This document shows positions 8,445 through 58,959 of a stretch of 64,000 nt of DNA, piece after piece. Position numbers and translations under genes: made by a program. This DNA comes from Myxococcota bacterium (GTDB taxonomy: Bacteria > Myxococcota_A > SURF-8): contig CAXXQS010000001.1 of NCBI GenBank assembly GCA_963674735.2, positions 1,909,370-1,973,369 of the forward strand, read 5' to 3'. A model generated the notes under the pieces. The model ran no database searches. It saw only the letters and a list, made by a program, of their open reading frames with translations, and was not told the origin of the DNA. Each line of letters starts with the position of its first letter. Position 1 is the stretch's first letter.

Positions 8445-8447
8445 CAA

Positions 8448-18594: not shown

Positions 18595-18620
18595 TAGAAC
18601 CGAATTCAAGGCTAAAAACG

Positions 18621-21854: not shown

Positions 21855-23723
21855 ATGTCAGAACGTTCTATCCACACATCGTCCAAATGGCATCTGCCCG
21901 TCCTCCTTTCATTGTGCCTTTCCCTCCTCCTATCGGCCTGCTTTTACGGATCGCCGGAAGAGGAAAGCTCCGATCCGCAATCAACCATTGTGGTGAAATC
22001 GGACGATTCCGGCATCCTGACATCGCCCGATGGCCGGGTGTACGTACAATTCGAAGCCGGAACCGTTTTACGGCCGACAACTTTTTCCGTAACCGAACTC
22101 GACCGGTCCCAATACCCCGATCAACCGTGGCTGCAGAGTAAGGTTTACATGATCGAGCCGTCTTTGCCGCTTGAAAAGGCCGTCACCGTTACCGTCGATA
22201 TCAAAGGACTGGAAGGCCAAGGGGTCGACATCGCCACGCTCTACAACCTCGACGCGCTGGCCTTGCGCAAAATCCGGCCGCTTATGCGGCCCGAGTATGT
22301 CTCGGTTCTCGAAACCAACATGGACCACTCCGATGGCACCAAACACCGGGTGCTTCTGCACCAGACCGATCAACTCGGCGCTTTCGGCGTCTATGTTCAC
22401 GATTGTTTCCTGATGTGCCGCAAAATCATCGAATGCCCAAGCTACACCCTCGAACCCGATACGCCCATCCGCGAACAGATCTTGAGCTGCATGTCGGAGA
22501 ATGGCTGCCCGGGCGAACTGGAATCCATCAACAGCGACGACATGGCCGCAACCTTCGACTGCGCCTGGAACCGCTCGTGTGCGGATGCCTATGGATGCTG
22601 CCAGGAAGAAAACCACTGCAGCAGCGCTCCGGATGGAGATGATCCCGATGGCGACGATCCGACCGACGGTGACACGGACGGCGACACCGACGGCGACACC
22701 GACGGCGACACCGATGGCGACACCGATGGCGACACGGACGGCGATACCGATGGTGACACGGACGGGGACACCGATGGCGATGACGACGATACCATCAGTT
22801 TCGATCCCCTGACCTGCAACGGCAATCCCGAATGCCCCGACGGCTGGGACTGCATCTATGAGGAATCGATCGATATCACCACCGGTTATTGCATGCGCCT
22901 CGCCTCGCAGGCCATCGCCACCTACTCCTTTAGCGGAACCAGTTGGGATTACGCCGAAATGGTTCCCGATCTCACCTGCGTCGGACAGGATCCCGTCGCG
23001 GGCGGGCAGGGACCGGCGTTCTTCACGCTGCGCGTCCAGGTCGCTCCCTGGTGGCAACTGGAAGACAAATCCAGCATCCAAGTGAAAATGTTCCGAGCCA
23101 CCAATCTCGACGTTCCCTTCATCAGCGGCGTTACCAACGAAAACGGAACGGTCGATTTCACTCAGATTTACCCGGACGAATGGTTCATGCTGCGCTCCGA
23201 ACGGCTCCCGCCCGACGACCGCATCGTGCCCACTTACGATTGGGGTCTCTTCATCCCCAAATCGGTCGCCAAAACCTACACCGATCAATCCGAGCCGGTT
23301 CCGATTACCATTCATCCATTGGACGAAACGCGGTATAACGCCTTTGCCCAGTCACTCGGTTTTTCGGAAGGCATGCCCCTTGGCTACGGCATGGTGATCG
23401 GCCAGGTTTTGGACTGCCATGCAAATCCGTATGCCCTGGCCAACGTCGGCATCGGCTTCAAGGAAGCCTCTCCCGCTGTCATGGGCTATTTCAACAACCA
23501 GGTCGACTATCCGTCACCGATGATGTTGCAAACCGCAACCAATAAAAACGGTTTATTTGTCGGGTTATATATGCCGCCACAGGACAATCTGACAGCCTTC
23601 GCCTTCGGACAGCTATCCGAAGGTGGCGGGTTGTATTCCATCCTGACCGGTCACACCGAACCGTTCCAATTCACCTTGAAACGGGATTCGGTGAGCATAA
23701 TCCGATTCAACCAGACTTACTGA
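21855..23723 (+). CDS. Lipoprotein with a (DGDT)x10 spacer and a carboxypeptidase-regulatory-like beta-sandwich region
   Basis: Start set at the ATG at 21855 (lipobox LLSAC). Internal DGDDPDGDDPTDGDTDGDT... repeat. The C-terminal segment IQVKMFRATNLDVPFISGVTNENGTVDF resembles CarboxypepD_reg folds. Confidence 0.65.
   Translation: MSERSIHTSSKWHLPVLLSLCLSLLLSACFYGSPEEESSDPQSTIVVKSDDSGILTSPDGRVYVQFEAGTVLRPTTFSVTELDRSQYPDQPWLQSKVYMIEPSLPLEKAVTVTVDIKGLEGQGVDIATLYNLDALALRKIRPLMRPEYVSVLETNMDHSDGTKHRVLLHQTDQLGAFGVYVHDCFLMCRKIIECPSYTLEPDTPIREQILSCMSENGCPGELESINSDDMAATFDCAWNRSCADAYGCCQEENHCSSAPDGDDPDGDDPTDGDTDGDTDGDTDGDTDGDTDGDTDGDTDGDTDGDTDGDDDDTISFDPLTCNGNPECPDGWDCIYEESIDITTGYCMRLASQAIATYSFSGTSWDYAEMVPDLTCVGQDPVAGGQGPAFFTLRVQVAPWWQLEDKSSIQVKMFRATNLDVPFISGVTNENGTVDFTQIYPDEWFMLRSERLPPDDRIVPTYDWGLFIPKSVAKTYTDQSEPVPITIHPLDETRYNAFAQSLGFSEGMPLGYGMVIGQVLDCHANPYALANVGIGFKEASPAVMGYFNNQVDYPSPMMLQTATNKNGLFVGLYMPPQDNLTAFAFGQLSEGGGLYSILTGHTEPFQFTLKRDSVSIIRFNQTY
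22665..22784 (+). repeat. In-frame 12-nt tandem repeat, about 10 copies, encoding DGDT
   Basis: gac ggN gac acN units. Copies differ only at wobble positions (ggc/ggt/ggg, acc/acg, gac/gat). Confidence 0.9.
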
Positions 23724-23790
23724 GATTCCGTTCCGGCCATGTAACGGCCGGATCGGCGAGCGCGCATTGTGTGTTTGAAAGGAGTTTTCC

Positions 23791-26667: not shown

Positions 26668-26709
26668 CGCGAACACGGAAGCGTGCGTTCCGTTCCGGAG
26701 CGCGACGCC

Positions 26710-27402
26710 ATGATTTCGGCGGCCTGCGACTTGGCTGTTATGGCCGCCATGAGTATGGAACTTCAGGCGGTTCGGGAAGGGTTTCCTCTTCTGGAAACCC
26801 TCCCTTCCGCTGGTTCGAATTGGGAAATCCGCGAAACTCCTACCCAAGATAAATTATGGATCGCGCGTTGCGGAGTCGGCGCCAAGCACGCGGACGGATT
26901 GCTCGCGACTTTGCGACAGCGCTCATCCATCAACCGCGTGCTGCTGGTCGGCTGTGCCGGAGGACTGGACCCTGCGCTCTCCGCCGGACAGGCCGTGATC
27001 GCCAGCGAATGCCGAAATTTATCGAGCGGCGTCACGCATTTTTCCGACCCGGCGCTGGTTGAGCAGCTTCAAGCCCTTCTTCCCCTAGCTCAAAAAGGCG
27101 GCATGGCAACCACGTCCCGAGTTTTGGCGTCCGCCCGGGAAAAGAGCGATCTCTTCAACGACACCGGATTTTTAGCGGTCGACATGGAAGCCGCCCTGCT
27201 GGCGGAAAAATCCGCCACGCACAAATTGGCCTTTGCCTGCCTGAAAATGGTTTCGGATTGCGCCCATGAAACCCTGCTCCTGGAAAACTCCCCAGCCACG
27301 CAACCCGACACCCCGCTGACCCTTGCCGACTTCGATCATCGACTGCGCTCGATTGCGTCGATGATCGCCGACCTGCTGGCCGCCCTTACAAACCCATTCT
27401 GA
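26710..27402 (+). CDS. PNP_UDP_1 phosphorylase-superfamily protein (MTA/SAH nucleosidase or futalosine-hydrolase-like)
   Basis: VLLVGCAGGLDP and AVDMEAAL motifs are typical of the nucleoside phosphorylase fold. The start is uncertain (GTG 26683 or ATG 26710). Confidence 0.6.
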   Translation: MISAACDLAVMAAMSMELQAVREGFPLLETLPSAGSNWEIRETPTQDKLWIARCGVGAKHADGLLATLRQRSSINRVLLVGCAGGLDPALSAGQAVIASECRNLSSGVTHFSDPALVEQLQALLPLAQKGGMATTSRVLASAREKSDLFNDTGFLAVDMEAALLAEKSATHKLAFACLKMVSDCAHETLLLENSPATQPDTPLTLADFDHRLRSIASMIADLLAALTNPF

Positions 27403-43397: not shown

Positions 43398-44237
43398 TTA
43401 AAGCGCTAAACTCCGGGGGTTCGGGGGCAGCGCCCCCGAGAAGAAACGCTGCCGCTCCTCTTGCGGCGTCCGATACTCCAGACTACTGTGTGGACGATAC
43501 GTGTTGTATTTCCTACGCCACATTTCCGTCTTTACCTGCGCTTCCCTAAGCGTCAGGAATATCTCCATGTTCAAATGCTCGTCGCGCACCTTCGAGTTGA
43601 AACTCTCGATGAAACCGTTCTGCCAGGGACTGCCCGCGTCGATGTGCAGCGTGTCCGTGCCGCGCTTATTGAGCCACGTCTTGAGTTTCTCGGCAATGAA
43701 TTCCGGGCCATTATCACTGCGGATAAAGGCCGGATTGCCGTACTGATTGAAGAGGCCATCGAGTATGCATATTAAGTCATCCGACTTGATGCCACGGTCC
43801 ACATGGATCGCCAGGCCTTCCCGCGTGTACTCGTCCTCCACCGTCAACAGCTTGATCCGCCTGCCGTTGCTGAGCGAATCGAACATGAAATCGTAAGTCC
43901 ATACGTGGTTCGGGCACTCAGCCTTGACCGGCAGGCCCGCCGACTTCGTTTTCTTTTTCTTGCGCGGTTTGCGTCTTGGCAGGCAAAGCTCCATCTCCCG
44001 CCAGACGCGGTACACCCGTTTCAAATTGACGATGTCATCCCGGACGATCACGCCCCAGGCCCGGCGATAGCCGAAACGCGGCTCGTCTTCTGCAATCGCT
44101 TTCAGTCGGGCCGCCAAGGCTGAATCATCACGCGGATGGGCCTTGTAGTAGTACGTGGATCGTCGCAGTTTCACCAACGCGGACAGACCACGCGAGGCCG
44201 CGTGATCCACCGCACACCGACGCTGCGCCGCCTTCAC
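43398..44237 (-). CDS. IS3-family transposase OrfB (DDE integrase core)
   Basis: HVWTYDFMF, LTVEDEYTRE, IRSDNGPEF, SPWQNGFIESFN, YNTYRPHSSL motifs. Expressed in the -1 frame relative to orfA. Confidence 0.9.
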   Translation of the reverse strand: MKAAQRRCAVDHAASRGLSALVKLRRSTYYYKAHPRDDSALAARLKAIAEDEPRFGYRRAWGVIVRDDIVNLKRVYRVWREMELCLPRRKPRKKKKTKSAGLPVKAECPNHVWTYDFMFDSLSNGRRIKLLTVEDEYTREGLAIHVDRGIKSDDLICILDGLFNQYGNPAFIRSDNGPEFIAEKLKTWLNKRGTDTLHIDAGSPWQNGFIESFNSKVRDEHLNMEIFLTLREAQVKTEMWRRKYNTYRPHSSLEYRTPQEERQRFFSGALPPNPRSLAL

Positions 44238-44914: not shown

Positions 44915-45775
44915 GTGAGGCATGTGATGGCGATCCAGCATGTTTCCGAGCGTCGGGCTTGTTGCGTCCTGGGCCAGCCCCGTTCGACCCAACGTCGCGT
45001 TCGAATTTCTCGCTCGGACGAAGCTCTGCTGACCCAAGCTATTGTCAAATTGGCAAGCCGTTACGGACGCTACGGATATCGTCGGATCACTGCGCTCTTA
45101 CGCGCAGACGGCTGGCGTGTCAACCACAAGCGGGTGGCTCGGATCTGGCGTGAGCAGGGATTGAAAGTACCGAAGAAGCAGCCGAAGCGCGGGAGATTGT
45201 GGCTGAATGATGGGAGTTGTATTCGACTGCGGTCACTCTTTACTGATCATGTTTGGAGCTATGATTTCGTGCAGGATCGCACACGCGATGGGAGAGCTTT
45301 GCGAATTCTGTGCGTGATCGACGAGTACAGCCGGGAGTGTTTGGCACTGACGGTGAAACGGAATCTGAATTCTCAAGACGTGCTGCGAACTCTGGATGAT
45401 CTGTTTATCAGGCGTGGCATCCCGAAGCATATCCGCAGTGATAACGGGTCTGAGTTTACGGCGAAAGCAGTGCGTGACTGGCTGAAGATGCTTGCAGTGA
45501 AGCCACTCTACATCGAGCCGGGCAGTCCGTGGGAGAATGGTTACGTTGAAAGTTTCAATGGGAAACTTAGGGATGAATTGCTGAATCGAGAGTTGTTTGA
45601 TAGTTTGAAGGAGGCTCAGGTTCTGATCGAAAGTTGGCGGCAACATTACAATACGGTGCGTCCGCACAGTGCGTTGGGCTACAAGCCACCAGCACCGGAG
45701 TCGATTTTACCGCCGATTGCCGTCGGAGAATTCCAAGGTCTCCAAAGTCAATCGGCTGGTTATCGTCTAACATGA
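44915..45775 (+). CDS. IS3-family transposase OrfB (DDE integrase core)
   Basis: [50 protein letters not shown] motifs. Confidence 0.9.
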
Positions 45776-45843: not shown

Positions 45844-47700
45844 TCATATACCATCATTGATTGTTCTGACAAGCCGGAAGCCAACATGATTTGCTTTGTT
45901 CGCAGGTTGGCGATAACAACGTCTACCAAGTATGCAAGCTTCCGCTGAACTTCCCCAGAAACACCCCCGAAACGCGATGCCATAGTTTTCCGAGCCCTCT
46001 GAAAAATCAATTCCCGCAGGACTCGTCTCCGGATCATTTCCAGAATATAGATGGATATCAGGATTAAATTTGTCATAAACCCATTCTCTTGTGTTTCCGA
46101 GAATATCGTAAATACAATTTCCGTTAGGCTGTTTCAATGCAATTGGCTTCGTTCCACAATATATTCCCGAAGGTCCGCCCAGTATCGAACACTCCACGGC
46201 ATCTTCATACTCAACGTGAGAATTCATAAGATACCACGCGCTTAAATCAAGCACCGGGTCCAATACATCATCGTAAATCGTAATATTTCCGTTGTATGCA
46301 TAGGTCGTTGTGCCTGCTCGCGCAACATATTCCCATTCAGCCTCTGTGGGTAACCGGTAACCTTCACAATCGTAGGCGGAAGCAACCTGATTAAGCGTGA
46401 TTACTGCATTGGAAATGCCTCCGCGCGTAAGGCAATCCGCCTCGGCTTCCACCGTTTCGTCGTTTCCACACGTAATGGAATCAAATATGTAACACGGGGT
46501 AAGTCCTTCCTGCTGCGACAAATTGTTTGCGTAGTGTAGGGCATCGAAATAAGTTACGCTCTCGACCGGGCAAGTTGGGCCGCAAGCGGAGAACTCTGAA
46601 GGGTTGCTTCCCATCAGCGATTCATAATCTGCTTGCGTGACCTTTGTGTTCATTACATAAATATCGCGGCTTAGTGAAACTTGATGCGGAGTCGCCATCA
46701 TATCGAGGGAAAACCCCATCGTAAAGGAACCCGCTGAAATCGGCACAAAACGGCGCTCGACGACCGGTGGCGTACACGTCGATGTATCGAAAGCGGTGCA
46801 TTGATCGTTACAAGTCGCTATTTCATCTGCATAATCGGAACAGATATCGGAACACAGTATCGTGCTTGAATCACAAACTTCTTTATCTTCCAGAGTTTCA
46901 TTTCCACAAATATTTTTCAGACATCTCCCGTCCTCGCAACCCAACTCGCATTCCGTAACCTCGAAGTTGTGGCAATCATAATAATATTCGTAGATGCAAT
47001 TTTCCAAATTGTCTACGTTGCAACGATGCCAGCTTCCTATACATTCATTGTTGCAGGTAACACAATATGACACATCGGGACAGAAACCGTTTAAGCATTC
47101 GTGTTGCTTGACCCACGTCGTGCAGGTATCGCTTATACGCTCGCAGGTCCACATCGCCGCAAATTCCCAGTAATTACACTGTTCCTCACCGATTACGCTG
47201 CAAGGGTAGGGGCAATCCTCGCTCTCCTCTTCGGTGCTTTCATTTCCTTCGAAGCTATCGTCTTCCGTGTTGTTCTCGTTTTCATTGCTTTCAATGATTT
47301 CTAATTCTTCGTCGGCATCGAACACATCCTGCTCGACAATTTCGTTATCACCATCGCTTTCATTTTCATAATCACTATCTGAATCCAGGTCACCATCACT
47401 TACGCTCTCGCAATCACTATCGGAATCCATTCTATCGAAATCGGAATATTCATCCGATTCTTGATCGCCATCGGCAGGCAGATCACCGTCAATCGAATTG
47501 TCCTCATCGTCCGCTAACTCGCGATCCAAGTCGCCGTCTTCCGGCGTGGATGAATCATCCTCTGTAAGCTCATCAGCTTCACGATCGGACTCAATATCCA
47601 ACTTGAAATCACCATCGCGATCGCCGTCGAGCGTATCGTCATTCGATGAATTGCAGGAAATACAGAGCGCAGCCAACAAGGCGAGTAATAGAAGCTTCAT
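45844..47700 (-). CDS. Lipoprotein with acidic spacer, Cys-rich module and a C-terminal FGE-sulfatase (SUMF1/C-type-lectin-fold) domain. Operon gene 4
   Basis: GAGGTG RBS before the ATG at 47700. Lipobox ALCISC and a long D/E/S spacer. CGNETLEDKEVCD resembles a Myxococcus Cys-rich repeat. GYRLPTEAEWEYVARAG ... NHVGFRLV are FGE-family signatures. Confidence 0.75.
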   Translation of the reverse strand: MKLLLLALLAALCISCNSSNDDTLDGDRDGDFKLDIESDREADELTEDDSSTPEDGDLDRELADDEDNSIDGDLPADGDQESDEYSDFDRMDSDSDCESVSDGDLDSDSDYENESDGDNEIVEQDVFDADEELEIIESNENENNTEDDSFEGNESTEEESEDCPYPCSVIGEEQCNYWEFAAMWTCERISDTCTTWVKQHECLNGFCPDVSYCVTCNNECIGSWHRCNVDNLENCIYEYYYDCHNFEVTECELGCEDGRCLKNICGNETLEDKEVCDSSTILCSDICSDYADEIATCNDQCTAFDTSTCTPPVVERRFVPISAGSFTMGFSLDMMATPHQVSLSRDIYVMNTKVTQADYESLMGSNPSEFSACGPTCPVESVTYFDALHYANNLSQQEGLTPCYIFDSITCGNDETVEAEADCLTRGGISNAVITLNQVASAYDCEGYRLPTEAEWEYVARAGTTTYAYNGNITIYDDVLDPVLDLSAWYLMNSHVEYEDAVECSILGGPSGIYCGTKPIALKQPNGNCIYDILGNTREWVYDKFNPDIHLYSGNDPETSPAGIDFSEGSENYGIAFRGCFWGSSAEACILGRRCYRQPANKANHVGFRLVRTINDGI

Positions 47701-47767
47701 GCTCGTCCACCTCATGAAGGGAAATGAATTATCCCCAATATTCGATCACTACAGGAATAAAGTTTCC

Positions 47768-49102
47768 TTATTGGGTCCATTCATCGAGCGGCCCGGCGAT
47801 CCCGCGAATGGAATAATCGTAGGGCGATAGCCACATTACATCGCCGTCGTCGGTAACAAGCCAGTGCTGCGTCGAGCCGAGAATCGCATCGGAGGCTGGT
47901 GTGCCATTCGGCGCGAAACCATAAAGATTGGACTGCATGGGCACACCTGCGACCCGCTGGAGACCACCACGCTCGGCATCAATAATGAAAAGAGCGGAGT
48001 GAGTGCCCGAGAGGACGTAGGTAATTCCGTTATAGGAAATAATGCTTTTATTGCTTATACAACAATCTAAAGAAAATGGCAGCCATGCCGCTTCGCACTC
48101 AGGATATTCAACCCAATGCTTGCACACCTCCAGTTCGGGCTCCAGGTGCGTTTCCAACAACCAATCTCCATTTTCGTTCGTATCTATTGAAACAAGCCGA
48201 CCAATAAACTCTGCCCAGCCCCGCCGATTTAGGATAGGAAAAAGGAATCCTCCATAATTTGAGTATTCCGGTTTATTGATTCCTCCACACGCCGAATAGT
48301 AGGTGCCGTCAGGATCACAATATGACCGAATCAGCTCCATGTAATTGTTCTGAATCGACACTCTATAAAATCCACTTTCCTTGCGCATTACAATACTTTC
48401 TTCAGTTTCTTCTTTCATACGACCAATAATATCAATTTCAGACCAGTTCGCGATTGAAAGAAAATGAAAATGAGATTCTTTCTCGGTTAAATCATAAGCT
48501 AATATCCCTGATGCGACATAATCAGGATTCTCGTATAGCCATCCGTCTTTATAGAATGATAAATATAATCTATCATCAATAATAACACTATCAATGACTT
48601 CGGGCGGAGTTGTCTGCGGCTCCCATCCTTGTTCGGAAATCTCCGGCAACTTGATGTAATCCAAAATCTCGGACGTCTCTTCCGTCAGCGAATACAAGAC
48701 GAAATCCCAGTCCTTGTTGTAACTGATTTTAGTGGGATCAATTGCTAGAATTCGCTTGTTGGCTTCGTCCCAAACAATCGGAAAATTCATGCCGGTTGTC
48801 GGGATTTGCGGGTAATAATCGCGCGGGAAAAAGCCCCAGGTGAAGGTCTGCCCCGTCTCAACTTCATCACGCCAGAGAGTTTTTGGATACTCCACATCCG
48901 CGGGATTTTCCGGGCGGGGTCGCGCTTCTGCCTCTTGTTCCTCTTCCACCTCGATATCGCTGTCGCCATCGATTTCGAGGTCTTCATCCCCGCCGCTCAA
49001 CTCACCGCCACCGCAACCGACGACCAGCACTAGGCACAAATATACAATTACTGCCCATCCGCATCCGCGGTTTCGACACTTCCGGCTACGCTTCTTGCTC
49101 AT
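47768..49102 (-). CDS. Lipoprotein with acidic spacer, beta-rich, unknown function. Operon gene 3
   Basis: ATGA start/stop overlap with the upstream giant gene. Lipobox LVVGCGGG, then GGDEDLEIDGDSDIEVEEEQE. Confidence 0.65.
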   Translation of the reverse strand: MSKKRSRKCRNRGCGWAVIVYLCLVLVVGCGGGELSGGDEDLEIDGDSDIEVEEEQEAEARPRPENPADVEYPKTLWRDEVETGQTFTWGFFPRDYYPQIPTTGMNFPIVWDEANKRILAIDPTKISYNKDWDFVLYSLTEETSEILDYIKLPEISEQGWEPQTTPPEVIDSVIIDDRLYLSFYKDGWLYENPDYVASGILAYDLTEKESHFHFLSIANWSEIDIIGRMKEETEESIVMRKESGFYRVSIQNNYMELIRSYCDPDGTYYSACGGINKPEYSNYGGFLFPILNRRGWAEFIGRLVSIDTNENGDWLLETHLEPELEVCKHWVEYPECEAAWLPFSLDCCISNKSIISYNGITYVLSGTHSALFIIDAERGGLQRVAGVPMQSNLYGFAPNGTPASDAILGSTQHWLVTDDGDVMWLSPYDYSIRGIAGPLDEWTQ

Positions 49103-52100
49103 TCAACCTCTTTCCAGTAGGCAACCGGAGATTTTAATCGGGCCACGACAAACACCACGTCGATACGACTGATCTTATCGACATCCTTCCATGTGTTATC
49201 GAATTCGTTCTGATAGGAATATGGCGTAGGATAATCCTGGCCTATCTGGCTCATTAGGATGTCCGGCGCATCGGTATCCCTCTGCTCATTATAGCAGAGA
49301 TTGCTTGGAATGGAGTAGCCATAGTCTCGATTATGCGATCTGACCACCCGAGTTAGCTCTTCCGCCCGATCGCCATCGTAAACCAGATACCAAGACCCTA
49401 AGACAGGAAGACCTCGGATATGTGAAGAGTAGAGGTATTCCATATCTTGCATTATGGAACCGCTACGATAATCGTTTACAATTGTTCCGTTTCCCGTGGT
49501 TGCGGCATCTTCATGGAAAAGATGCTGTCGCTCATACCAGCTAAGCAAAGGTTTCGGACACGTCACCGCCCGTTTTGCAATTTCTCCACTTAGACCTTTA
49601 AACGAAACCGTGACTGGGCTGTTGCATGTCAATTCTCCATCGATCCTAAGCGGCTCAAGCCCCCAAGCGGCAGCATTGACAATAAACAGGTTTCCTTGAT
49701 CATCTTTGTGCGGAAATCCGTTTTCGTAATAATAAAAGTTGTCGTGTACACCGCCATCGGGACATTCCAGCGGATTTACTCCTGTTGATGGATCATTGTC
49801 CAAATCCGCCGTTATGCAGCAGTTAACCTGCATACCCGTTTGTGCGTCATACTCACACCAGTAATCGGCATAATAAACCTTATACCGCACCTCGTAAACG
49901 ACCGGAGGCGCGATATGTATTCCATTTTCATCAACGATGCTCTCGTAGGTATTAATTCCAAGATCCTGCGGAGACACCGTGAACTTGGTCACACCTTTCG
50001 AAAGAAAGGCATCCGCAGGTCCAGCGTAGTGGCAATCCTCGTCCGGACAAACTTCGAACGAGCTTCTATCGCAGTAGCGCGGCTGCTCGATCAGCAAGGT
50101 CGCCTGACAGTTTTCTCCGTTTTCATCGCAATCTTCGACCATCTCCCCGGTATCTTCTGCCTCGTAGTAACATGGAATACGTTCGAGCGTCTTCACGACA
50201 TACGTAAAGGGCATAAACGTTTGACCGCCATCGCCGAGTGACAATTTCAGATTATCGACACTTTCCGCGAGTAGACTTGCATAGCCGCTAGTCATGCTCT
50301 CAATCTTTTCTTCAATATTCTCTACTATCCAATGATCTTCATTGTAATCCTTTCTTGCTTCTAATACCTTTTCTCTATATGATGAATCAATAGCATCATA
50401 TTCTTGTTCCTGCATGATGGCAGGCAACTGGAAACGGTAGTTAGACAGGTTATCCCAAAGGCTGGTGTGAAAACCATATCTGGGATAACGCTTGAAAGCG
50501 TTTTCCTGCGGACTCCAAGATGCGGGAAGCGTAACATAGGGCGGGACTTCACTCTGCCCTAAAGTCGTGTACATAATCTGCGAAGCGCTGTAGATCTCTC
50601 GTTTTGCGGCCTCGACGGAAAGCCTCAATCCTTCGCATGTACTACCCAACCCAACACGGTCGTATTGATCGTCGCGCCAATTCAAATTAACGTATTTCCG
50701 CCAACTCGCGATATCTTCCAAAAATGTTTCCTGGTTTTCGATGTTCTGTCCATGGTAATTCATTGTCAATAGCGCCTGTTGTAACTGCATTTGTATCATC
50801 TGGGAGCTGATGCGCATTGATTCAACGATTTGTGAAATCGTTAATAACTGAATTTGGAATTCAGCCAAATGCATTTCTAAAAACGCCCGATCATTTCCGG
50901 GACAAGGATCTGTTCCAAATATCCACTCTAAAACCGTACTGAGTGTCCCCAGAGCTTCGCCAATGGGTCCGAAAAAGTCTGCCATTTCGCCTAAAACATC
51001 CGAAACCTCACCCAAATTTTCGTATACACCGAAATATTCCGGCATGGCCATACTCATGAGATAGTTATCTCGCATTTCATATAAACGCATCGTGTTTTCA
51101 TCAAAGCAAAGTTGCCGTATCTTATCGCACAATGTTTTCCCTTTACTAAAAGCTTGTGTCATGTATCCATTCACATCGCGTGCGGTGTTCAACATTTCCG
51201 TATTTATATACTCTTCACCGTAACATCTATCCGTCATTTCGTTGAGCATCTGCACAAGGCCAGTTTCCCGATTGCAAACAAGTCCCTCTTCCGTCATATC
51301 GCAACCCAGCATTAGTTGCGCACGTCTCGCAAAGCCATCCAGAGACTCGTTAAGTTCTGCCTCTAATGCGATTAAGCTATCCACTAGCATTTTGAAATCG
51401 TAAATCTGCTTTGAGGATGTGTTGATCTGTTGATCCGCATATCTAGTCAGAATTTCGCCCATCATGTCCATTCGTTCTTGAAGTCCCTGAGTAAAGATCG
51501 CATCTTGGCGTCGATCTCGAAGGGTTGTAAGCAAAATATTGATGCTATCTTGAAGCTTGTACCAGCGTTGAATATAACTATCGAACCCAGTTGGACGCGA
51601 TACATAAGCGTAGGAATTCAAATATGGATCCATATATGAAGGATTTTCGTAATCTTCTCCTTCATTTGCTAAATCGAAGTTTGACAACTGATACCAAGAT
51701 CGTGCAAGTGAACCATAAGGCATATCTATTGAGTTCACCTTAATGCCCAGCAAGTCTTCTTGTTTCGGATTCCTATATTCTTCCAACTTTTCAAATGTAT
51801 CAGATCTTAATGCACACTCTTTTACTGAATAGGGATGTTGTCCCACTATGACATATCGATTAGTTTTAAAATAATTATCTATTGCTTTAGCGAATAATAA
51901 TGTCAATCTCGGAGAATTCGGGTAATACATTGGTAAAGCATCAAACAGCTCATATGCAAGTTTCAGGAAATTGTTTTTATCTCTCATTGGTATGGCAGCT
52001 GCATCATCTGCTCTATCTGCAGCCTGCAAATATAAATTGAACAACTCAGTGTTGGACAATGTGAATTGAATGTCCTTTGTCAAATTGGGAGCAACCGGCC

Positions 52101-54207
52101 CTTCTTCGAGAGGGCCGTTTACTTCCGATTCTATATGATCTATTGAATTTTTCCATTGAGCAAGACCACGTCTCAAGTTGCCTTGCACCATATCCTTCTG
52201 GGACATGAGAGCAACTGGCATCGTTATTCCGAACGATGAAACCGGAAAATTTAACTCAGTACTTGCATCCATTTGAGGGTTTTCGCCGACATTGTAACAC
52301 CTCCATTTAGTGGATGACAAACCTCCAGAATTACCACAATCGGACGTCGGTAATTCTTCACCATCTGATGGGCATTGATCATTAATGCATGTAGGAATAC
52401 TATCACCCACGCATCCATTTAAACAATACCGCTCAATTTCCACACTTCCAGATACTACTGTTAAACATTTATTTTCAGATCCAAACAGATTAACCATGTT
52501 TTTCGACTTTATACAAAGCTCTATCTCGGAAAAGCCAGAATAGTCTTGCATTTGAAGAAGGCTTGAATACATCTTATAGTACAACGCATCAACAACTTCC
52601 TGTGCACCGGCGTACTGATTAAATATTTGTACAGTGTTTCTTTTATAAGCCGGTGCGTTGTGTTTTTGATTTGTCGATCCTTTGGCATAGTAAAAGCTGT
52701 CTTTTGAGTATACAGCGGCAAATCCTCCTTCAACTTCTTCATGGAACGTCGGCAATTCAAGCGTCCAGGTAATCTTTTTGTTATTGCCACTTCCCGAAAT
52801 ATTCTCGGTAAATAGTTCTAATGCTTCCAATTCAACAAGCGCTGCGTCGGTTCCATTGGGATAATAATCTTCAGCAGTCATATTGTCTTCGTGTAGGCTT
52901 CCAACTTCTACCCTATCATAAAACATTCCTTGCTGTGCATAGCCTAATCCTTCCCAATAGGCACGCGTGTTTATTCTGACAAGAGCATGTGCTGGCTTAA
53001 TGTTTTGGTGACTTGATAGTGCGGGAGGAATGCTATTTGTCTTTACTTCTTTTATACCAGTAACGTTGTTTGCCGCAACTAACAACACCGATGGAGTAGG
53101 AGTGTAAGCCCATACTCTCTTAAGCACTTCAAGTTCGCTTAGAGGCCTCGTACTTCCTGTGCTTGTTGGCGTACCATTTCCAACCCATTCAACGTCAATT
53201 TTTGTTTTAGGCTGTAGATTATCTACAATACCGGTTATTTTATTTGACAACAATATGGTGTTTAACCCTAGTTTAATGTAGTTTACAGGGATTTTGATAT
53301 TGGGAGCGGCAATAACTACTGTATTGGGGTTTTGTTCAAACAATTCTTCGTTTTCTCGCCGGTTATTATACAACCTTGTAAGGATTTGAGTTTTGTTGTC
53401 TATGCCATATCCTGATGCCGCTAAAGCAACAATTTCACCGGCATTTCCTGCTAATATATTATTCCTAGATAAGAATTCACATATTCCTAAAGCTAAGTCA
53501 TCTTCAGAACATATATATCTAGGATCCAGAACATAACCAATGTTTGTTGCAGGATCAATTGCGACCGTTAGTAACTCCGTTGCCGTCGAATTGCCATTCA
53601 ATCTATACTTGACAGCTGCTTTTGTTAGTATAAACCCGAACTTCGATCCAAAAATCAATGTGGACTTCGTATTCGCCTTTCCCATATAATCTGCGATTTT
53701 CTGAAGTTTCAGACTATCAATGTTGGGGTCGAATATTGCACCGGTAGCTGTAAACCTATTTGTTATTTCCTGGGTGTTAACTTCACTAAAATCAACCTGC
53801 TTGGGCCACATGTCGCAGTTGCTACCATCGATAAATCCCACCTTGTGGTAACCTAGCATCTCAGTTGAAGGCCTACTGTTCTTTATAAACTCGATTTCTG
53901 AATAGGATTCATCGTAAACGCTCACGTTTATCGGATGGTAAGACGTTTGAACCCCTTCAAAAGACCAGCCAGTTAAATCCGTTTCATTTGTAACGACTCG
54001 AATTTCATCAATTTCATTTATAGACTCGACCTTAACATCATTCATGCTGACCATCGTCGATTGTGTCTCAGAGTCAATATTGATTCTTATAAATGGCTCT
54101 TCTGCAGAGACTTCATAATCGCTTATTGTTACATCGGAGATCTCAGCAATGGGCAAGCTACGACCGCTAAAATCTATTGTAATGGCTTGCCCGTCCACGT
54201 GTGGCAT
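49099..54207 (-). CDS. 1702-aa orphan giant protein with no recognisable signal peptide or catalytic motif. Operon gene 2
   Basis: Uninterrupted 5.1-kb ORF in an AT-rich context, where long ORFs do not arise by chance. Beta-rich N-terminal third, a largely helical-looking centre and several Cys clusters. Confidence 0.75.
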   Translation of the reverse strand: MPHVDGQAITIDFSGRSLPIAEISDVTISDYEVSAEEPFIRINIDSETQSTMVSMNDVKVESINEIDEIRVVTNETDLTGWSFEGVQTSYHPINVSVYDESYSEIEFIKNSRPSTEMLGYHKVGFIDGSNCDMWPKQVDFSEVNTQEITNRFTATGAIFDPNIDSLKLQKIADYMGKANTKSTLIFGSKFGFILTKAAVKYRLNGNSTATELLTVAIDPATNIGYVLDPRYICSEDDLALGICEFLSRNNILAGNAGEIVALAASGYGIDNKTQILTRLYNNRRENEELFEQNPNTVVIAAPNIKIPVNYIKLGLNTILLSNKITGIVDNLQPKTKIDVEWVGNGTPTSTGSTRPLSELEVLKRVWAYTPTPSVLLVAANNVTGIKEVKTNSIPPALSSHQNIKPAHALVRINTRAYWEGLGYAQQGMFYDRVEVGSLHEDNMTAEDYYPNGTDAALVELEALELFTENISGSGNNKKITWTLELPTFHEEVEGGFAAVYSKDSFYYAKGSTNQKHNAPAYKRNTVQIFNQYAGAQEVVDALYYKMYSSLLQMQDYSGFSEIELCIKSKNMVNLFGSENKCLTVVSGSVEIERYCLNGCVGDSIPTCINDQCPSDGEELPTSDCGNSGGLSSTKWRCYNVGENPQMDASTELNFPVSSFGITMPVALMSQKDMVQGNLRRGLAQWKNSIDHIESEVNGPLEEGPVAPNLTKDIQFTLSNTELFNLYLQAADRADDAAAIPMRDKNNFLKLAYELFDALPMYYPNSPRLTLLFAKAIDNYFKTNRYVIVGQHPYSVKECALRSDTFEKLEEYRNPKQEDLLGIKVNSIDMPYGSLARSWYQLSNFDLANEGEDYENPSYMDPYLNSYAYVSRPTGFDSYIQRWYKLQDSINILLTTLRDRRQDAIFTQGLQERMDMMGEILTRYADQQINTSSKQIYDFKMLVDSLIALEAELNESLDGFARRAQLMLGCDMTEEGLVCNRETGLVQMLNEMTDRCYGEEYINTEMLNTARDVNGYMTQAFSKGKTLCDKIRQLCFDENTMRLYEMRDNYLMSMAMPEYFGVYENLGEVSDVLGEMADFFGPIGEALGTLSTVLEWIFGTDPCPGNDRAFLEMHLAEFQIQLLTISQIVESMRISSQMIQMQLQQALLTMNYHGQNIENQETFLEDIASWRKYVNLNWRDDQYDRVGLGSTCEGLRLSVEAAKREIYSASQIMYTTLGQSEVPPYVTLPASWSPQENAFKRYPRYGFHTSLWDNLSNYRFQLPAIMQEQEYDAIDSSYREKVLEARKDYNEDHWIVENIEEKIESMTSGYASLLAESVDNLKLSLGDGGQTFMPFTYVVKTLERIPCYYEAEDTGEMVEDCDENGENCQATLLIEQPRYCDRSSFEVCPDEDCHYAGPADAFLSKGVTKFTVSPQDLGINTYESIVDENGIHIAPPVVYEVRYKVYYADYWCEYDAQTGMQVNCCITADLDNDPSTGVNPLECPDGGVHDNFYYYENGFPHKDDQGNLFIVNAAAWGLEPLRIDGELTCNSPVTVSFKGLSGEIAKRAVTCPKPLLSWYERQHLFHEDAATTGNGTIVNDYRSGSIMQDMEYLYSSHIRGLPVLGSWYLVYDGDRAEELTRVVRSHNRDYGYSIPSNLCYNEQRDTDAPDILMSQIGQDYPTPYSYQNEFDNTWKDVDKISRIDVVFVVARLKSPVAYWKEVE

Positions 54208-57200
54208 TTCTGCATGGTAAAGTTTAAGGTCCGCTGCGATGTTAATGGCCCCATAATGTCAAAACGTGTTAATTCACTATTCTTATTTCCTAGCACATAC
54301 AGATTTACGCCTTCGAAATTGATTGAAGGAGCATAAAAAGCGGGCCCACGGAAGATAACAGTTCCGTTCCCTTTCGTTACCTCGCTGCTATTTATTATCT
54401 CGACGCTAGTGTTATCGCTAACTTCAATAATTCCGTTTACAGCACTTATTTTGCCAACAATAAAAGATGAAATCATATCGTCCACTATAACTCGTCGGTA
54501 AGAATCTTTTTTATTCACTTGCAACTCACCTAGACGGATTTCGCTACCGTCAATTCCGGCAACTACACTCTTCCTGTCTCCTGTGAAATTGATTGCCGCA
54601 TTACTGATATCCGCAGATGCCGTTTTTAATATTATATTTGAGTTTACGCTAACAGAAATTCCCGGATTTGTTATGAATTCTCCTTCATGTATAGTTAATT
54701 GCTCCAACTCCAATTCTGGCGTAGTTACAATTACAGTTCCTCCTCCATAAAGCACAAGATAATTTGCATATATTGGACTACTGATATATCGAATCTCCCC
54801 CTCAGGAACTAATAAGCCAATCTCCTCTACATCATTATGTGTGAGATCATCATCCATTAGAACTGGTATCTCGTTTTTACCGATATACAGGTAATCATGA
54901 TTATCTGGAGTGTAATTGTATTCATGCCGTCCTTCTAGTTTACTTTCACCCGTCAGCAACAACTCTCGTGGAAGCCGATAGTTTTCCGCTTCTTCAAAAC
55001 AATTCATACTCCCGACTACAAATTCCGTTGATCCAAATGATTTTAAGGTATTTCCATGGGCAGTATTAATATAATTAATATAGCTATAGTCGGCATTAAA
55101 TTCCGTTAATGAGAAAAATATCTTCTCCCCACATGAAATTGCTCCGCTAGGCTGAATATTATTTACAACAATTTCCTGCCCAATTTCTTCTCCATCAAGG
55201 ACTTTATGTTGGCTTATAATTGTTTTAACATCATTCAAGTAATCACTTGGAATATATTTAACTATACGCACTGCACCTTCACCGGTGAAGGACGCAGAAA
55301 TATAGTTGCCCGGATGCTTGTGTATCCATGCAGGAGAATCAGATATGTAAAATGTTCCTCTTTCATTAAACCCCATCGCATGTAGACTGATTCCCGATGA
55401 ATTTCTAGCTACAAAGTACATATTTCCTTCGTATTTAGCGGTATCAAAGTCAAGAAATCCTCCAGCCACAACAACATCATGATCGCTTATAGTTCTGACG
55501 CGGATTTCATCAATATCAAGTACAGTAATTTTTCCTGCGAGATCATTTAGAGAATTCTTGGGTCCACCGATGAGAACCTCTTCAAACCCATCACCATTTA
55601 CATCTAAAGAATCAATATTACAATACGATCTGTCAGGGATCATGAACTGTGAATACCATAATCCTTCTCGATGCAATTCACGCAATCCAGGATAAGTATA
55701 CACGGCGACTGAAACAACTTGATCCTTTACTTCGCATGTTGCCATTGCCATTCGACCAGTTTTCATTTTGAAGAATGTCTTTGCGTAAGAATTATAACTT
55801 GTCATCGACGGCACTTTAGTTGAATATTCGAAATAATCGCTACTAAAAGCAACCGGAGAACTCGCTAAATCGGACGGTTCAATAAGCACATGACGCATTG
55901 CATTGATATAGCAACTGCTGCCACCGATGAAAGTTCCGTTAAACTGCCCCTTGTCTACATCGCATTCCCAGCAACCATCTTCCGTTCTTTGGTTGTCCTC
56001 AATACATTCACCTTTGATATAACACATATTATTGCTTATACTCATAACACATTGACCCATGCTACATGCATACTGGCCGCAGCTAGGAGCGTCATTTCCA
56101 CTTGAGCAGGATTGGCCTTCTGATTCACTATTCCAGTACCAAGAATACTTGAATACGTTGGGATTACACAGAGAACAGCCATTCGGAGATTGCTGCCCTT
56201 CGGGAATACATTGATTATCGATTAAACAATATCCATCAGATACATCAGCAACACATTGGGACTCATGGCAAGTTCCCAATACGCAAGGCAAATCAGAATC
56301 AACATCGCAAGATTCACCATCATCAATCCTGTGTACGCACCCTAATTCGACGTCGCAGGCATCAGTTGTACAAGGATTGTCGTCATTACAATCTAAAAAC
56401 GACTTGGGGGTACAAACACCATCAATACAAGTATCACCGATCGTACATTCATCTTGATCGTTGCATGGTAAGTAGGAAACAGATGACCATTTATTCGGCG
56501 TAGTGGAGTCGCATAGCTGACATGGTTCTTCTGGTTTTTTCATTCCCTCTTCGAAGCAATATCCATCAATATAGCAAACTCCCTCCTTAAGGCGCGTTGC
56601 ACATGTACCAGAAAAAGAACTGCAGTAAGCCGAATGACAATTTGAGTCTAGATACTCGCAATCATTATCTGTGTCGCATTCTCCGGAGTATTGGCATCCA
56701 TTTATGGTGCAGATTCCGTTTCCTAAACATGTATTCTGGCCTATGCATACTCCTTCCGAGCAGCGATCATTATCTGTGCATGAAAACGTATCATCACATG
56801 AAGTTCCATTTACTGCATGTGTAGAAACGCATTCCTTTTGTGAGTCATCGCAAATTCCAACTGTGCAAGCACCATCATCTAGATATGAACAATCGAGCTG
56901 TGGATTTTCGCAAAATGGCAAAATTGTAATCACGATCTCGGCGGAATTTTCATTTTTATACGCCGTTATTTTGTGAACGCCTACAGGCAGATTTGATTTT
57001 TTAAATTCCCATGGATATCCTTTTCCAATGGGATTAATGTCCAGCTTGAACTCGGAATTTCCAATTGTGTTAACGGTGCCATCAGGCGCAGTATGCTCAC
57101 TTTTCCAATTCACCGTTCCAGTTCCGTTGTACTCGACATCAAAGTGAATTTCATCCTTCTCGTAGTATTCACTCTGAGTTGGTTTTTCAATGGTTACCTT

Positions 57201-57275
57201 GCACGAGACGGCGATAAGGGCAACAAAGAAAAATACGATAACCCGCATGGTTGCTAACATACAAGTATTACGCAT
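54174..57275 (-). CDS. Large lipoprotein: Ig-like N-module, tandem Cys-rich C-x-D-x-N-x-C-T-type repeats, FG-GAP-like segment, beta-helix-like C-terminus. Operon gene 1
   Basis: AGGAG lies 6 nt before the ATG at 57275. Lipobox LIAVSC. Repeats such as CNDQDECTIGDTCIDGVC / CNDDNPCTTDACD. DVNGDGFEEVLIGG is FG-GAP-like. The C-terminal repetitive N/G/S/I/V-rich strands suggest a beta-helix. Confidence 0.75.
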   Translation of the reverse strand: MRNTCMLATMRVIVFFFVALIAVSCKVTIEKPTQSEYYEKDEIHFDVEYNGTGTVNWKSEHTAPDGTVNTIGNSEFKLDINPIGKGYPWEFKKSNLPVGVHKITAYKNENSAEIVITILPFCENPQLDCSYLDDGACTVGICDDSQKECVSTHAVNGTSCDDTFSCTDNDRCSEGVCIGQNTCLGNGICTINGCQYSGECDTDNDCEYLDSNCHSAYCSSFSGTCATRLKEGVCYIDGYCFEEGMKKPEEPCQLCDSTTPNKWSSVSYLPCNDQDECTIGDTCIDGVCTPKSFLDCNDDNPCTTDACDVELGCVHRIDDGESCDVDSDLPCVLGTCHESQCVADVSDGYCLIDNQCIPEGQQSPNGCSLCNPNVFKYSWYWNSESEGQSCSSGNDAPSCGQYACSMGQCVMSISNNMCYIKGECIEDNQRTEDGCWECDVDKGQFNGTFIGGSSCYINAMRHVLIEPSDLASSPVAFSSDYFEYSTKVPSMTSYNSYAKTFFKMKTGRMAMATCEVKDQVVSVAVYTYPGLRELHREGLWYSQFMIPDRSYCNIDSLDVNGDGFEEVLIGGPKNSLNDLAGKITVLDIDEIRVRTISDHDVVVAGGFLDFDTAKYEGNMYFVARNSSGISLHAMGFNERGTFYISDSPAWIHKHPGNYISASFTGEGAVRIVKYIPSDYLNDVKTIISQHKVLDGEEIGQEIVVNNIQPSGAISCGEKIFFSLTEFNADYSYINYINTAHGNTLKSFGSTEFVVGSMNCFEEAENYRLPRELLLTGESKLEGRHEYNYTPDNHDYLYIGKNEIPVLMDDDLTHNDVEEIGLLVPEGEIRYISSPIYANYLVLYGGGTVIVTTPELELEQLTIHEGEFITNPGISVSVNSNIILKTASADISNAAINFTGDRKSVVAGIDGSEIRLGELQVNKKDSYRRVIVDDMISSFIVGKISAVNGIIEVSDNTSVEIINSSEVTKGNGTVIFRGPAFYAPSINFEGVNLYVLGNKNSELTRFDIMGPLTSQRTLNFTMQKCHTWTGKPLQ

Positions 57276-57488
57276 TTCACGCTCCTTAATAGAATTCACA
57301 TGAGCTTACTATGAGTACAATAAACAACTAAAACATACAAATTACAAAGTCAATAAAACAATCATGTGCAAGAATTATTACTGTGTAACTATCGCTAATA
57401 TGTAGTCGTATCAAATAGTTTGTTACATAATTTAAAGTGTAAAAGTCAAGAGCCTCCCGGACAGTTAGTCCTCTCGGTTGTTGGCTGA

Positions 57489-58574
57489 CTAGGCCGTTTC
57501 GGGAGTCGGTTCCTCCATTTCTTTTTTCTTGTTTTTCGTCTCTTTGATTTCGATGATTTCAGCTCGCTTCTTCTTTCCCATTTCAAACGTTTCGACCGGT
57601 CTTCGTCCCTGGTTTCTGTACCCGCGATGGGGGCGTTGATTGTTGTAAGACTCGAGCCAGGCGTCGAGATCGGTCTGGAGTTCCTCCAGGCTGAGATATA
57701 GCTTTTCCCTGAAAGCGGTTCTGAAGAATTCATCGAGTACGGTTCGGTTGAAGCGTTCGACGAATCCGTTTGTCCTCGGTGTTGCGACCTTGGTGTAGCG
57801 ATGCTTGATGCCGTGCAGCTCGAGCAAGATCTCGTAGAGATGGATCATGGGTCGTCCCTTGAATTCGGTTCCGTTGTCGGTGAGGATGTTTTCAATGATC
57901 AGTTCGTTTTCCTCATAGAACGGCAGGACGTGGTCGTAAAGGACATCGGCTGCGGTTTCCGGTCTTTTGGATGTATAGAGCTTTCCGAAGGCGATGGAAG
58001 AGTAGGTATCGACCACGGCCTGCAGATAGATTCTTCCGACGCCTTTCATTCGTCCGACGTACAAAGTGTCCTGGCAGATCAGCTGGCCGGGATACTCGCT
58101 CTCCACATGGCGCTCCCTGAAACAGGGATTTGCTTTTTCAATGAGACGGATCTGTTCTTCTGTCAGTTCGACACCCGCTTCTTTGACGACTTTTTCCTCA
58201 AGCAGCAGCAGTCGCTTGTAGCGGGTTTCCATGTTTTCCTTGATCCAGAGATTGCGTACGGATGATGCGGATACGGAGACGCCTTGAAGCTGCAACTGGT
58301 CGGCGATGCGCTGCTGTCCGAATGTCGGATGCTTTAGAGAGAGCGAGATAATCGTCTCCTTGGTCTCATCGGAAAGCTCGTTTGGGTGTGGCCCTGGAAT
58401 GGGCGGTTTGTCCATCAGGCCTTCGAGGCCGAACTCCTGGAAATCGCGTTTGTACTCATAGAATTGACTTCGCGACACCTCTTGCAGACGACAGGCTTTG
58501 GATACGTTTCCGAGTTTTTCAGCAAGCTGTAGCAATGTGAGTCGTTTTCGTGCTAATTTTTCCTTGGCGATCAT
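57489..58574 (-). CDS. IS481-family transposase (HTH plus integrase core)
   Basis: AAGGAG RBS before the ATG at 58574. Motifs QDTLYVG, ENILTDNGTEF, TPRTNGFVERFNRT, YNNQRPH. Confidence 0.9.
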   Translation of the reverse strand: MIAKEKLARKRLTLLQLAEKLGNVSKACRLQEVSRSQFYEYKRDFQEFGLEGLMDKPPIPGPHPNELSDETKETIISLSLKHPTFGQQRIADQLQLQGVSVSASSVRNLWIKENMETRYKRLLLLEEKVVKEAGVELTEEQIRLIEKANPCFRERHVESEYPGQLICQDTLYVGRMKGVGRIYLQAVVDTYSSIAFGKLYTSKRPETAADVLYDHVLPFYEENELIIENILTDNGTEFKGRPMIHLYEILLELHGIKHRYTKVATPRTNGFVERFNRTVLDEFFRTAFREKLYLSLEELQTDLDAWLESYNNQRPHRGYRNQGRRPVETFEMGKKKRAEIIEIKETKNKKKEMEEPTPETA

Positions 58575-58638
58575 TGATATCTCCTTCTCGATAAATGGTG
58601 GTTTGGTCACTGTCCATTATACCGAGAGGACGACCGCC

Positions 58639-58678
58639 GGCCAGTCCTGGGAGCTTTGCGGCTCCCTACGGACTGGCC
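58639..58678. repeat. 40-nt imperfect palindrome inside the transposase-proximal end of the IS481 element
   Basis: GGCCAGTCC-T-GGGAGC-tttgcg-GCTCCC-TAC-GGACTGGCC. This segment has no counterpart at the other IS end, where CCCGGACAGT is followed directly by the shared GTCCTCTCGGT. Confidence 0.7.
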
Positions 58679-58959
58679 TCATACTAAGCTTCGACTGTCC
58701 GGGAAGATCCTAACTTTTTCACCTCGATATTCCAATAACCATCAATGATACCGATGATCTCGTCAAGAACACGGTTTGATGAGAAAAGCGGGAATCTTGA
58801 AGGCAAAGACAAAAGCCGGGGCAGGAGTGATGTCTTGTTTGAGAAAATTGGCGCTGGGCATCATGCACGAAATCAATGGTGATCGAACCATTCCAAACCT
58901 CATGTATCATCTTGCTACAAAACTTCGTTACGCTTTTTCAAACTTAGAATTGAATCGCC

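Follow-up and report, generated by a model that had tools for sequence, protein, structure and literature searches.

How can a very large protein look extracellular in its cysteines and yet carry no signal for export? This question is raised by an open reading frame (ORF) of 1702 codons on the minus strand, at 49099–54207, of a 64,000-nucleotide stretch of DNA from a Myxococcota bacterium (GenBank assembly GCA_963674735.2, contig CAXXQS010000001.1, positions 1,909,370–1,973,369 of the forward strand). The whole stretch is referred to here as the window, and the ORF as the giant ORF. An initial annotation, made from the sequence alone, described its product as an orphan with cysteine clusters of the extracellular type, and offered two explanations for the missing signal: a non-classical route of export, perhaps dependent on the flanking lipoproteins, or a physical connection with the upstream gene. 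Our analysis strongly favors the second: the giant ORF is very probably the distal 62% of a single lipoprotein gene of approximately 2,730 codons, which was split by one missing base.

The giant ORF and the frameshift upstream of it

The ORF listing and the translation confirmed the giant ORF, with its length of 1702 amino acids (aa). The absence of an export signal also held: no lipobox was found in the giant ORF, and the maximum 12-aa hydropathy within residues 1–46 was 1.03, compared with 3.3–3.5 in the three flanking lipoproteins. The public record annotates a fragment of the giant ORF, starting at Met52, as a separate protein of 1651 aa, and no lipoprotein signal was recognized in the 1702-aa ORF alone, whether it was read from Met1 or from Met52. 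No transmembrane-like segment was found in the giant ORF (maximum 19-aa Kyte–Doolittle value, 1.24). C-terminal sorting signals of the type IX and type I secretion systems (T9SS C-terminal domain and T1SS/RTX), which the initial annotation had proposed as a point to check, gave no match in Pfam or NCBIfam, nor did MYXO-CTERM or PEP-CTERM, and the C-terminus (...IDVVFVVARLKSPVAYWKEVE) has no hydrophobic-plus-basic tail. When the giant ORF was compared with Pfam, NCBIfam, PHROGs, PADLOC, and the PDB sequences, no match was obtained.

The sequence upstream of the giant ORF accounts for the missing export signal. An upstream lipoprotein ORF with Cys-rich repeats (54174–57299, minus strand, 1041 aa) shares 34 nt with the giant ORF. 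The closest relative of the giant ORF, the 2943-aa protein P0002, is encoded by one continuous ORF that spans both of these ORFs, and its N-terminal third is homologous to the upstream ORF. The frameshift site is a GGGG run at 54249–54252 on the minus strand (ATT ATG GGG/GCC on the coding strand), which is one base short relative to the in-frame homologue. When one G was added to this run, an ORF of 2733 aa with no internal stop was obtained, and the repaired ORF aligned end to end with P0002 in a single BLASTP segment (residues 25–2733 against 128–2942, 2869 columns, 35.9% identity). At the junction, the upstream frame reads ...RFDIMG and the downstream frame reads AINIAADLKLYHAEMP, which in combination match FNVTGQVSVAADFKLHHVEIP of P0002, and the alignment across this point is gapless (TRFDIMGAINIAADLKLYHAEMP against TIFNVTGQVSVAADFKLHHVEIP of P0002). 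The more distant relative P0005 likewise reads through the position of the frameshift as one ORF. Furthermore, the frame of the giant ORF is open for 17 codons 5′ of its ATG (HYGAINIAADLKLYHAE-M), and this stretch extends the homology with P0002. The split lies inside a domain of beta-helix-like repeats, away from any domain boundary.

The whole reconstructed gene occupies 49099–57275 on the minus strand, and the upstream ORF contributes the first 1,025 codons of the joined gene. Its length is approximately 2,725 codons from a Met that is preceded by a Shine–Dalgarno sequence, or 2733 codons from an upstream GTG. The Shine–Dalgarno sequence, AAGGAG, lies 6 nt 5′ of Met9 of the upstream ORF (ATG at 57275), and none was found before Met1 of the giant ORF or before the annotated Met52. 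These comparisons indicate that the giant ORF is not an independent gene. The missing base is either an indel in the assembly or a real, recent mutation; a real mutation would have to be recent because the 5.1 kb downstream of it are still fully open. If the frameshift is real, the cell would make a truncated lipoprotein of 1041 aa, whereas the distal region would scarcely be made, if at all. The initial annotation considered both of its options to be unusual; however, a long accessory gene that is split by a one-base indel is ordinary. The locus also holds a lesson for annotation, in that a one-base break of the frame is what makes a giant protein look exported and yet devoid of a signal.

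Relatives, export signals, and conserved cysteines

An exhaustive phmmer search, in which residues 504–1702 of the giant ORF were compared with 1.84 billion cluster representatives, yielded four relatives. These were P0002 (E = 1e-196; ENA assembly ERZ21878204, contig ctg9164l, locus L081), which is a predicted lipoprotein; P0003 (1815 aa, E = 1.5e-21; GCA_019314235.1, JAFCZR010000105.1, L083:119–5860); P0004 (243 aa, E = 8e-6), a fragment of the C-terminal beta-rich domain; and P0005 (1591 aa, E = 5e-4; Logan SRR29278625, L082:60–4835). A metagenome scan added one further relative, a 1.6-kb fragment (L084) that belongs to the same C-terminal domain. A word-indexed protein search with the whole ORF or with the family alignment returned only the entry of the giant ORF itself. 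This type of search was uninformative for this family: P0002–P0005 were never returned, and with the N-terminal 503 aa even the self match was missed. Orphan status would be wrong if it were taken from the word-indexed search alone. The description of the protein as an orphan therefore holds with respect to the curated libraries, in which it has no match, but not with respect to the four phmmer relatives and the metagenome fragment.

No relative was found when the species-representative genomes were scanned with the giant ORF, and no homologue was found in a scan of viral contigs or in tblastn searches of plasmids and phages. When the five family members were compared with Pfam at E values up to 5, the only domains obtained were CARDB and DUF11, both in P0003. 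The NCBIfam scan of the relatives gave no match, and a literature search with their accession numbers returned no papers. The family is thus extremely rare, with five sequences and one fragment among approximately 15 billion predicted proteins, and its core of approximately 1,600 aa has no match to anything known.

On the basis of significant collinear similarity in the core and shared invariant motifs, the giant ORF can be grouped with P0002, P0003, and P0005; the invariant alignment columns across the family include GLPxLGxW, TC, and ID. P0002 resembles the window protein most closely. It is collinear with it over the whole repaired length and shares each of its regions, namely the lipobox start, the Cys-rich repeats, the FG-GAP-like and beta-helix-like parts, and the 1,600-aa core; unlike the window gene, it is a single uninterrupted ORF. 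P0003 and P0005 share the conserved core domains and motifs of the window protein, and both are shorter. P0003 does not have the Cys-repeat, FG-GAP-like, and beta-helix-like extension; what it has in addition is a CARDB domain and a module of approximately 120 aa. This module (DGDSYDFSE...GGD[FL]YLKDLKFYANNVGQ) occurs twice in P0003, as an insert in the middle of the protein and after the C-terminal CARDB domain. P0005, unlike the window protein, begins at the beta-helix-like region and lacks two of the three Cys clusters (clusters 2 and 3) and a signal peptide of its own.

The N-termini of the longer forms carry the export signals that the giant ORF lacks. In the joined protein, a lipoprotein signal peptide is encoded at 57201–57275 on the minus strand (MRNTCMLATMRVIVFFFVALIAVS/C; a match to a PS51257-like lipobox pattern, hydropathy 3.47), and P0002 has an equivalent lipobox (LLILSG/C). 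The start of P0003 was called at nt 416, and thus 99 codons too late. From the in-frame Met at nt 119, P0003 begins with a Sec signal peptide (MGISIARLIPLTVCLVSLLLLGAGLAFA/GE), directly followed by the core motif VGFVDGTNC, and at its C-terminus it has the extracellular CARDB domain (E = 6e-16). Wherever the N-terminus can be judged, the family is thus predicted always to be exported. Because the joined protein and P0002 have a lipobox and P0003 has a Sec signal peptide, the core appears to be a Sec substrate, for which an unusual export route is unnecessary, and the signal peptide and lipobox mark the joined protein as a predicted bacterial lipoprotein. The puzzle of export is resolved because the giant ORF is joined to the upstream lipoprotein ORF, and non-classical export via the flanking lipoproteins is not needed to explain it.

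The Cys clusters that had suggested an extracellular protein were also recovered. The giant ORF contains 32 Cys, of which 18 lie within three clusters (residues 565–637, 1346–1392, and 1451–1482); a density of eight Cys per 75 residues has a probability of approximately 0.006 if Cys are placed at random. In P0002, 28 of the 32 Cys are kept, even though the overall identity is only 36%, and the clusters are consequently real and under constraint. This degree of conservation fits disulfide-stabilized extracellular domains, and we infer that the conserved Cys form disulfides outside the cytoplasm. The extracellular, disulfide-bonded character claimed for the clusters is therefore supported indirectly, by the conservation of the Cys, the export signals, and the CARDB domain of P0003. 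Clusters 2 and 3 would be variable inserts and not a catalytic or metal center, because both are missing from P0005.

Architecture, possible function, and alternative explanations

The features of the joined protein are described here in order from its N-terminus, all on the minus strand. A Cys-rich repeat region with approximately 46 Cys (55911–56912; upstream ORF residues 130–463) contains a Dicty_CTDC repeat, with an E value of 1.2e-5 in the window and 3e-7 in P0002. Within a Cys-free region of approximately 400 aa lies an FG-GAP-like repeat (55521–55610), which in the window is under the Pfam threshold (E = 0.018) and in P0002 exceeds it (E = 1.4e-5, 25.3 bits against a cut-off of 22.1 bits). 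The beta-helix-like repeat region (53878–54782) consists of residues ∼840–1025 of the upstream ORF and residues 1–110 of the giant ORF; it spans the frameshift and is collinear with P0002 and P0005. Short, regular strands were assigned by DSSP to residues 1–99 of the giant ORF in a low-confidence AlphaFold2 model. The repeat region is followed by a conserved N-terminal core domain (52528–53865; giant ORF residues ∼115–560; alignments A1, A3, and A5), with the motifs GF[IV]DGxNCxxWPKQ, GSK, IGYxLxxRYxC, APxI, GIKxV, and LPx7GGxAA, and by Cys cluster 1 (52297–52515), which is conserved in P0002. A long-helix region (50239–52194; giant ORF residues ∼672–1323) has a conserved C995 and the motifs VNxIDxxYGxxARxWYQ, MYTxxQILxTTxG, and GFxxSLWD (alignment A1). 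The C-terminal beta-rich domain (49102–50220; giant ORF residues 1330–1702; alignments A1 and A2) is the best conserved part; it contains Cys clusters 2 and 3, the invariant C1528, C1550, and C1638, and the motifs GLPLLGTWYLVF and IDVVFVV.

The AlphaFold2 models were built from alignments of 4–6 sequences and had predicted local distance difference test (pLDDT) scores of 36.5 (C part) and 38.5 (N part), so only their secondary structure was used. In these low-confidence models, DSSP assigned helices to residues ∼672–1323 of the giant ORF, some of them 62–66 residues long, and beta structure to the ends. The initial annotation had placed a helical middle at residues ∼750–1250 between beta-rich ends; this arrangement is supported by the models, within their low confidence. 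In the long-helix region, pLDDT reached 50–62 only at residues ∼940–1170. A Foldseek search of the PDB with the N part gave no match at E ≤ 0.001 (best, 0.98), and the C part, with its model pLDDT of 36.5, gave only generic long-helix matches (E = 0.006–0.1, TM-score up to 0.30).

From this architecture alone, our best guess is that the protein is a surface-exposed adhesin or cell-contact protein that works with two partner proteins encoded next to it, a 444-aa lipoprotein and a protein with an FGE-sulfatase fold. The intact protein would cross the inner membrane by Sec and then be lipidated, with the outer membrane of this Myxococcota/Desulfobacterota-like bacterium as its most likely site of anchorage. 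The 28 conserved Cys could then form disulfides outside the cytoplasm. From the anchor outwards, the protein would consist of the lipid anchor, a small beta domain, a stalk of Cys-rich repeats, the FG-GAP-like region, a beta-helix-like spacer, and a head. The conserved head of approximately 1,600 aa would be made up of an alpha/beta domain, a very long helix bundle, and a disulfide-stabilized beta domain, and the stalk would present it for adhesion or cell contact together with the 444-aa and FGE-fold partners. TraA, the receptor for outer-membrane exchange, is an example of the large multidomain surface proteins that Myxococcota-like bacteria build from Cys-rich repeats; its head is PA14-like, and it has a MYXO-CTERM tag at the C-terminus. 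The window protein is like TraA in that it is predicted to be exported and has a Cys-rich stalk that presumably holds a distal recognition module off the cell. Unlike TraA, it carries a lipobox at the N-terminus, its head of 1,600 aa is unrelated, and no model for such a tag or head matched it in NCBIfam or Pfam. Should a function be found, such as adhesion, the recognition of kin, or attack upon contact among Myxococcota-like bacteria with a predatory or social life, the core would be a new module for the catalogue of bacterial surface proteins; the remaining interest is modest, and no new principle has been indicated so far.

Several points weigh against a single, surface-anchored lipoprotein that was interrupted only by an error in the assembly. 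FtsH, TilS, FolP, GlmM, and other genes of the window are intact, and the only other overlapping same-strand pair among its larger ORFs (16630/18534) consists of two separate lipoproteins; the window thus gives no impression of an error-prone assembly, and a genuine mutation is quite possible. P0005 itself lacks a signal peptide, and a distal module without one may exist naturally. The start codon of P0005 shares bases (ATGA) with the stop codon of another ORF on its upstream side (L082:1–63), of which 20 codons remain before the contig ends, and this arrangement may be a natural two-gene form of the family or a further break of the frame; similarity between this 20-aa tail and the upstream ORF of the window was not borne out by scoring. 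The joined lipoprotein, proposed to lie at the surface, may instead be periplasmic. The proposed function is drawn from architecture alone, both AlphaFold2 models are poor, and no curated family or solved structure matches. The case of P0005, together with the ATG of the giant ORF, its separate listing in the public record, and the 444-aa lipoprotein gene that overlaps its stop in the same ATGA manner, would be in keeping with an independent, signal-less protein that is exported non-classically, e.g., as a passenger or client of the flanking lipoproteins. We nevertheless consider this very unlikely, given that the split interrupts a domain which P0002 and P0005 have in unbroken form, that homology runs into the 17 codons 5′ of the ATG in the frame of the giant ORF, that neither candidate start has a Shine–Dalgarno sequence, that no T1SS, T9SS, or other sorting domain was found with Pfam or NCBIfam, and that P0002 and P0003 bear classical signals. 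The cell might also use the change of frame, by a programmed −1 slip on G GGG or by slipped-strand phase variation, to make both the 1041-aa form and the full-length lipoprotein. The GGG-reading tRNA-Gly can re-pair one base back, the next codon would then be the GCC that is needed for the joined frame, and surface proteins are often phase-variable. However, there is no X XXY YYZ heptamer, and at the site (AUG GGG CCA) a slip could occur only through one tRNA, on G GGG. Of 200 shuffled versions of the 97 nt that follow the site, 195 fold more stably than the native sequence (minimum free energy, −14.9 kcal/mol against a mean of −19.9 kcal/mol; z = +1.68). In addition, the site is not conserved: P0002 has aatgttaccggtcaagtt with no G run, and both P0002 and P0005 are in frame. 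Because there is no heptamer, no stimulatory RNA fold at a downstream spacing of 5–9 nt, and no conservation, programmed recoding appears unlikely, and a run of 4 nt is far shorter than the tracts known to vary at useful rates; use of the frame change by the cell, in either form, is highly improbable.

The remaining alternatives concern what the protein is, not how it is encoded. As it stands, the giant ORF has no signal peptide, and compact Cys clusters can be zinc sites, so that a cytoplasmic protein with metal-binding clusters might be envisaged; however, the relatives carry a lipoprotein or Sec signal and an extracellular CARDB domain, the clusters are without His, and two of the three are absent from P0005. 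We regard a cytoplasmic, metal-binding protein as extremely unlikely. The distal core might instead be a membrane-active module, a pore former or fusogen-like element of the ClyA or TcA type, which is carried on a lipid-anchored stalk and serves as a contact-dependent weapon on a mobile cassette. Its approximately 650 helical residues, with helices 62–66 residues long in the low-confidence model, and the position of the cassette among mobile-element genes agree with this proposal. The top Foldseek matches of the same model include ClyA, Hbl-B, AhlC, and SmhB (E = 0.006–0.1), and profile A1 weakly matches the heptad-repeat helices of coronavirus S2 (E = 0.018–0.8). None of these matches is significant, however, and the Foldseek list also contains F-BAR, clusterin, and designed bundles, i.e., generic long helices, for a model with a pLDDT of 36.5. 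When the family profile A4 was aligned by hhalign with Escherichia coli ClyA (HlyE), the probability was 0.14% over seven aligned columns. No hydrophobic hairpin was found (the 19-aa hydropathy has a maximum of 1.24 in the whole ORF and ∼1.0 in the helical region), and neither an immunity-like small gene nor a toxin domain was found. We therefore consider a membrane-active module improbable. A broader form of the proposal is equally improbable: that the core represents a new class of machine that is displayed at the surface and acts on membranes or in cell contact, with a long-helix bundle between two beta domains, on a mobile cassette with two helpers. Some lineages, among them that of P0005 and possibly, provided that the run of four Gs is real, that of the window, would then make the distal module as a separate, signal-less polypeptide, which would reach the surface via its partners.

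Candidate identities of the core were rejected individually. For the class I fusion heptad repeats of coronavirus S2, the best E value was 0.018 (profile against PDB sequences) and no individual stretch exceeded the threshold, which is a typical coiled-coil background. Homology with ClyA was rejected on the hhalign result and had no Pfam match in its favor. Tc toxin A, MACPF, RTX, and other annotated toxin families had no matching Pfam or NCBIfam model, and the remote homology to TcA, MACPF, or other pore formers that the initial annotation had suggested as a check was not recovered by Pfam, Foldseek, or hhalign. A likeness to the ClyA-family toxins (ClyA/HlyE, Hbl-B, AhlC, and SmhB) would lie in a bundle of very long antiparallel helices, as the weak Foldseek matches of the model with a pLDDT of 36.5 may suggest. 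Unlike these toxins, the window protein has no sequence or profile similarity to the family and no hydrophobic tongue or hairpin, and its helical part has double the size and belongs to a lipoprotein of 2,700 aa.

The cassette and its mobile context

The reconstructed lipoprotein gene is followed by two genes on the same strand. The 444-aa lipoprotein gene (47768–49102, minus strand) has an ATG that overlaps the stop of the giant ORF (ATGA), and the gene for a 623-aa exported protein lies at 45844–47715 (minus strand). In the 623-aa protein, the signal peptide is followed by an acidic linker, then by a Cys-rich region, and finally by the FGE-sulfatase domain (PF03781, E = 1.3e-25); its lipobox-like ISC fails the strict pattern. 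No internal similarity was detected between the giant ORF and its neighbors, among which only the upstream ORF and the 623-aa protein share Cys-rich repeats. The order of giant lipoprotein, ∼444-aa lipoprotein, and FGE-sulfatase-domain protein is the same in L081, the locus of P0002, which is the one relative in which conservation of the cassette was judged, the contigs of P0003 and P0005 being too short. Across its full length, the 444-aa lipoprotein shares 39% identity with the 443-aa product of the gene next after that of P0002, and the 623-aa protein is 46% identical to the product of the third cassette gene of L081, which is longer (782 aa). The third cassette gene is like PorK/GldK of the T9SS ring, in which lipoproteins with this fold act as structural partners, in that it encodes an exported protein with an FGE-sulfatase fold, and its best NCBIfam matches include GldK/PorK; it differs in that the score was 41 bits against a cut-off of 350, and no other T9SS gene is present. 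The FGE-substrate motif C/S-x-P/A-x-R (CxPxR) is absent from the joined protein, both partners, P0002, and P0005. A scan for promoters and terminators gave results at the background level.

The composition and surroundings of the cassette set it apart from the rest of the window. The GC content at third codon positions (GC3) is 0.35–0.50 in the cassette and 0.65–0.72 in the housekeeping genes of the window, and in L081 the GC content of the cassette is 0.35–0.42 compared with 0.52–0.56 in the housekeeping flank on its downstream side. Immediately upstream of the cassette in the window is a complete-looking insertion sequence (57437–58722, minus strand) with 29-nt terminal inverted repeats (83% complementary), which encodes a 373-aa DDE transposase with HTH and rve domains. 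Directly downstream are two IS3-type transposase ORFs, at 43398–44237 (minus strand, 279 aa) and 44915–45775 (plus strand, 286 aa), with rve, rve_3, and HTH_21 domains; just beyond them lie genes for tRNA-Val (40149) and tRNA-Pro (42118). In L081, the cassette has a Y1 transposase and three tyrosine integrases on its upstream side. Because of the low GC and GC3 values and the mobile-element flanks in both the window and L081, the cassette is accessory and was probably acquired horizontally. GlmM of the host is 50–56% identical to GlmM of Myxococcota and Desulfobacterota genomes.

Some further observations were made in the window. At 23707–26847 (minus strand, 1046 aa) and 23791–26667 (plus strand, 958 aa), two ORFs overlap almost fully, and the minus-strand ORF is without a Pfam match. 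The predicted lipoproteins at 1544–3145, 16630–18594, 18534–20216, and 21789–23723 have an acidic D/G/E-rich linker directly after the lipobox, and essentially no Pfam match, with one sub-threshold match at 21789–23723. An acidic linker after the lipobox was also seen in the 444-aa and 623-aa cassette proteins, and seems to be a habit of the lineage. A second low-GC stretch lies at 6699–10373 (GC 0.40–0.43, GC3 0.39–0.44); it encodes a family-2 glycosyltransferase and a 641-aa TPR protein, and may be acquired.

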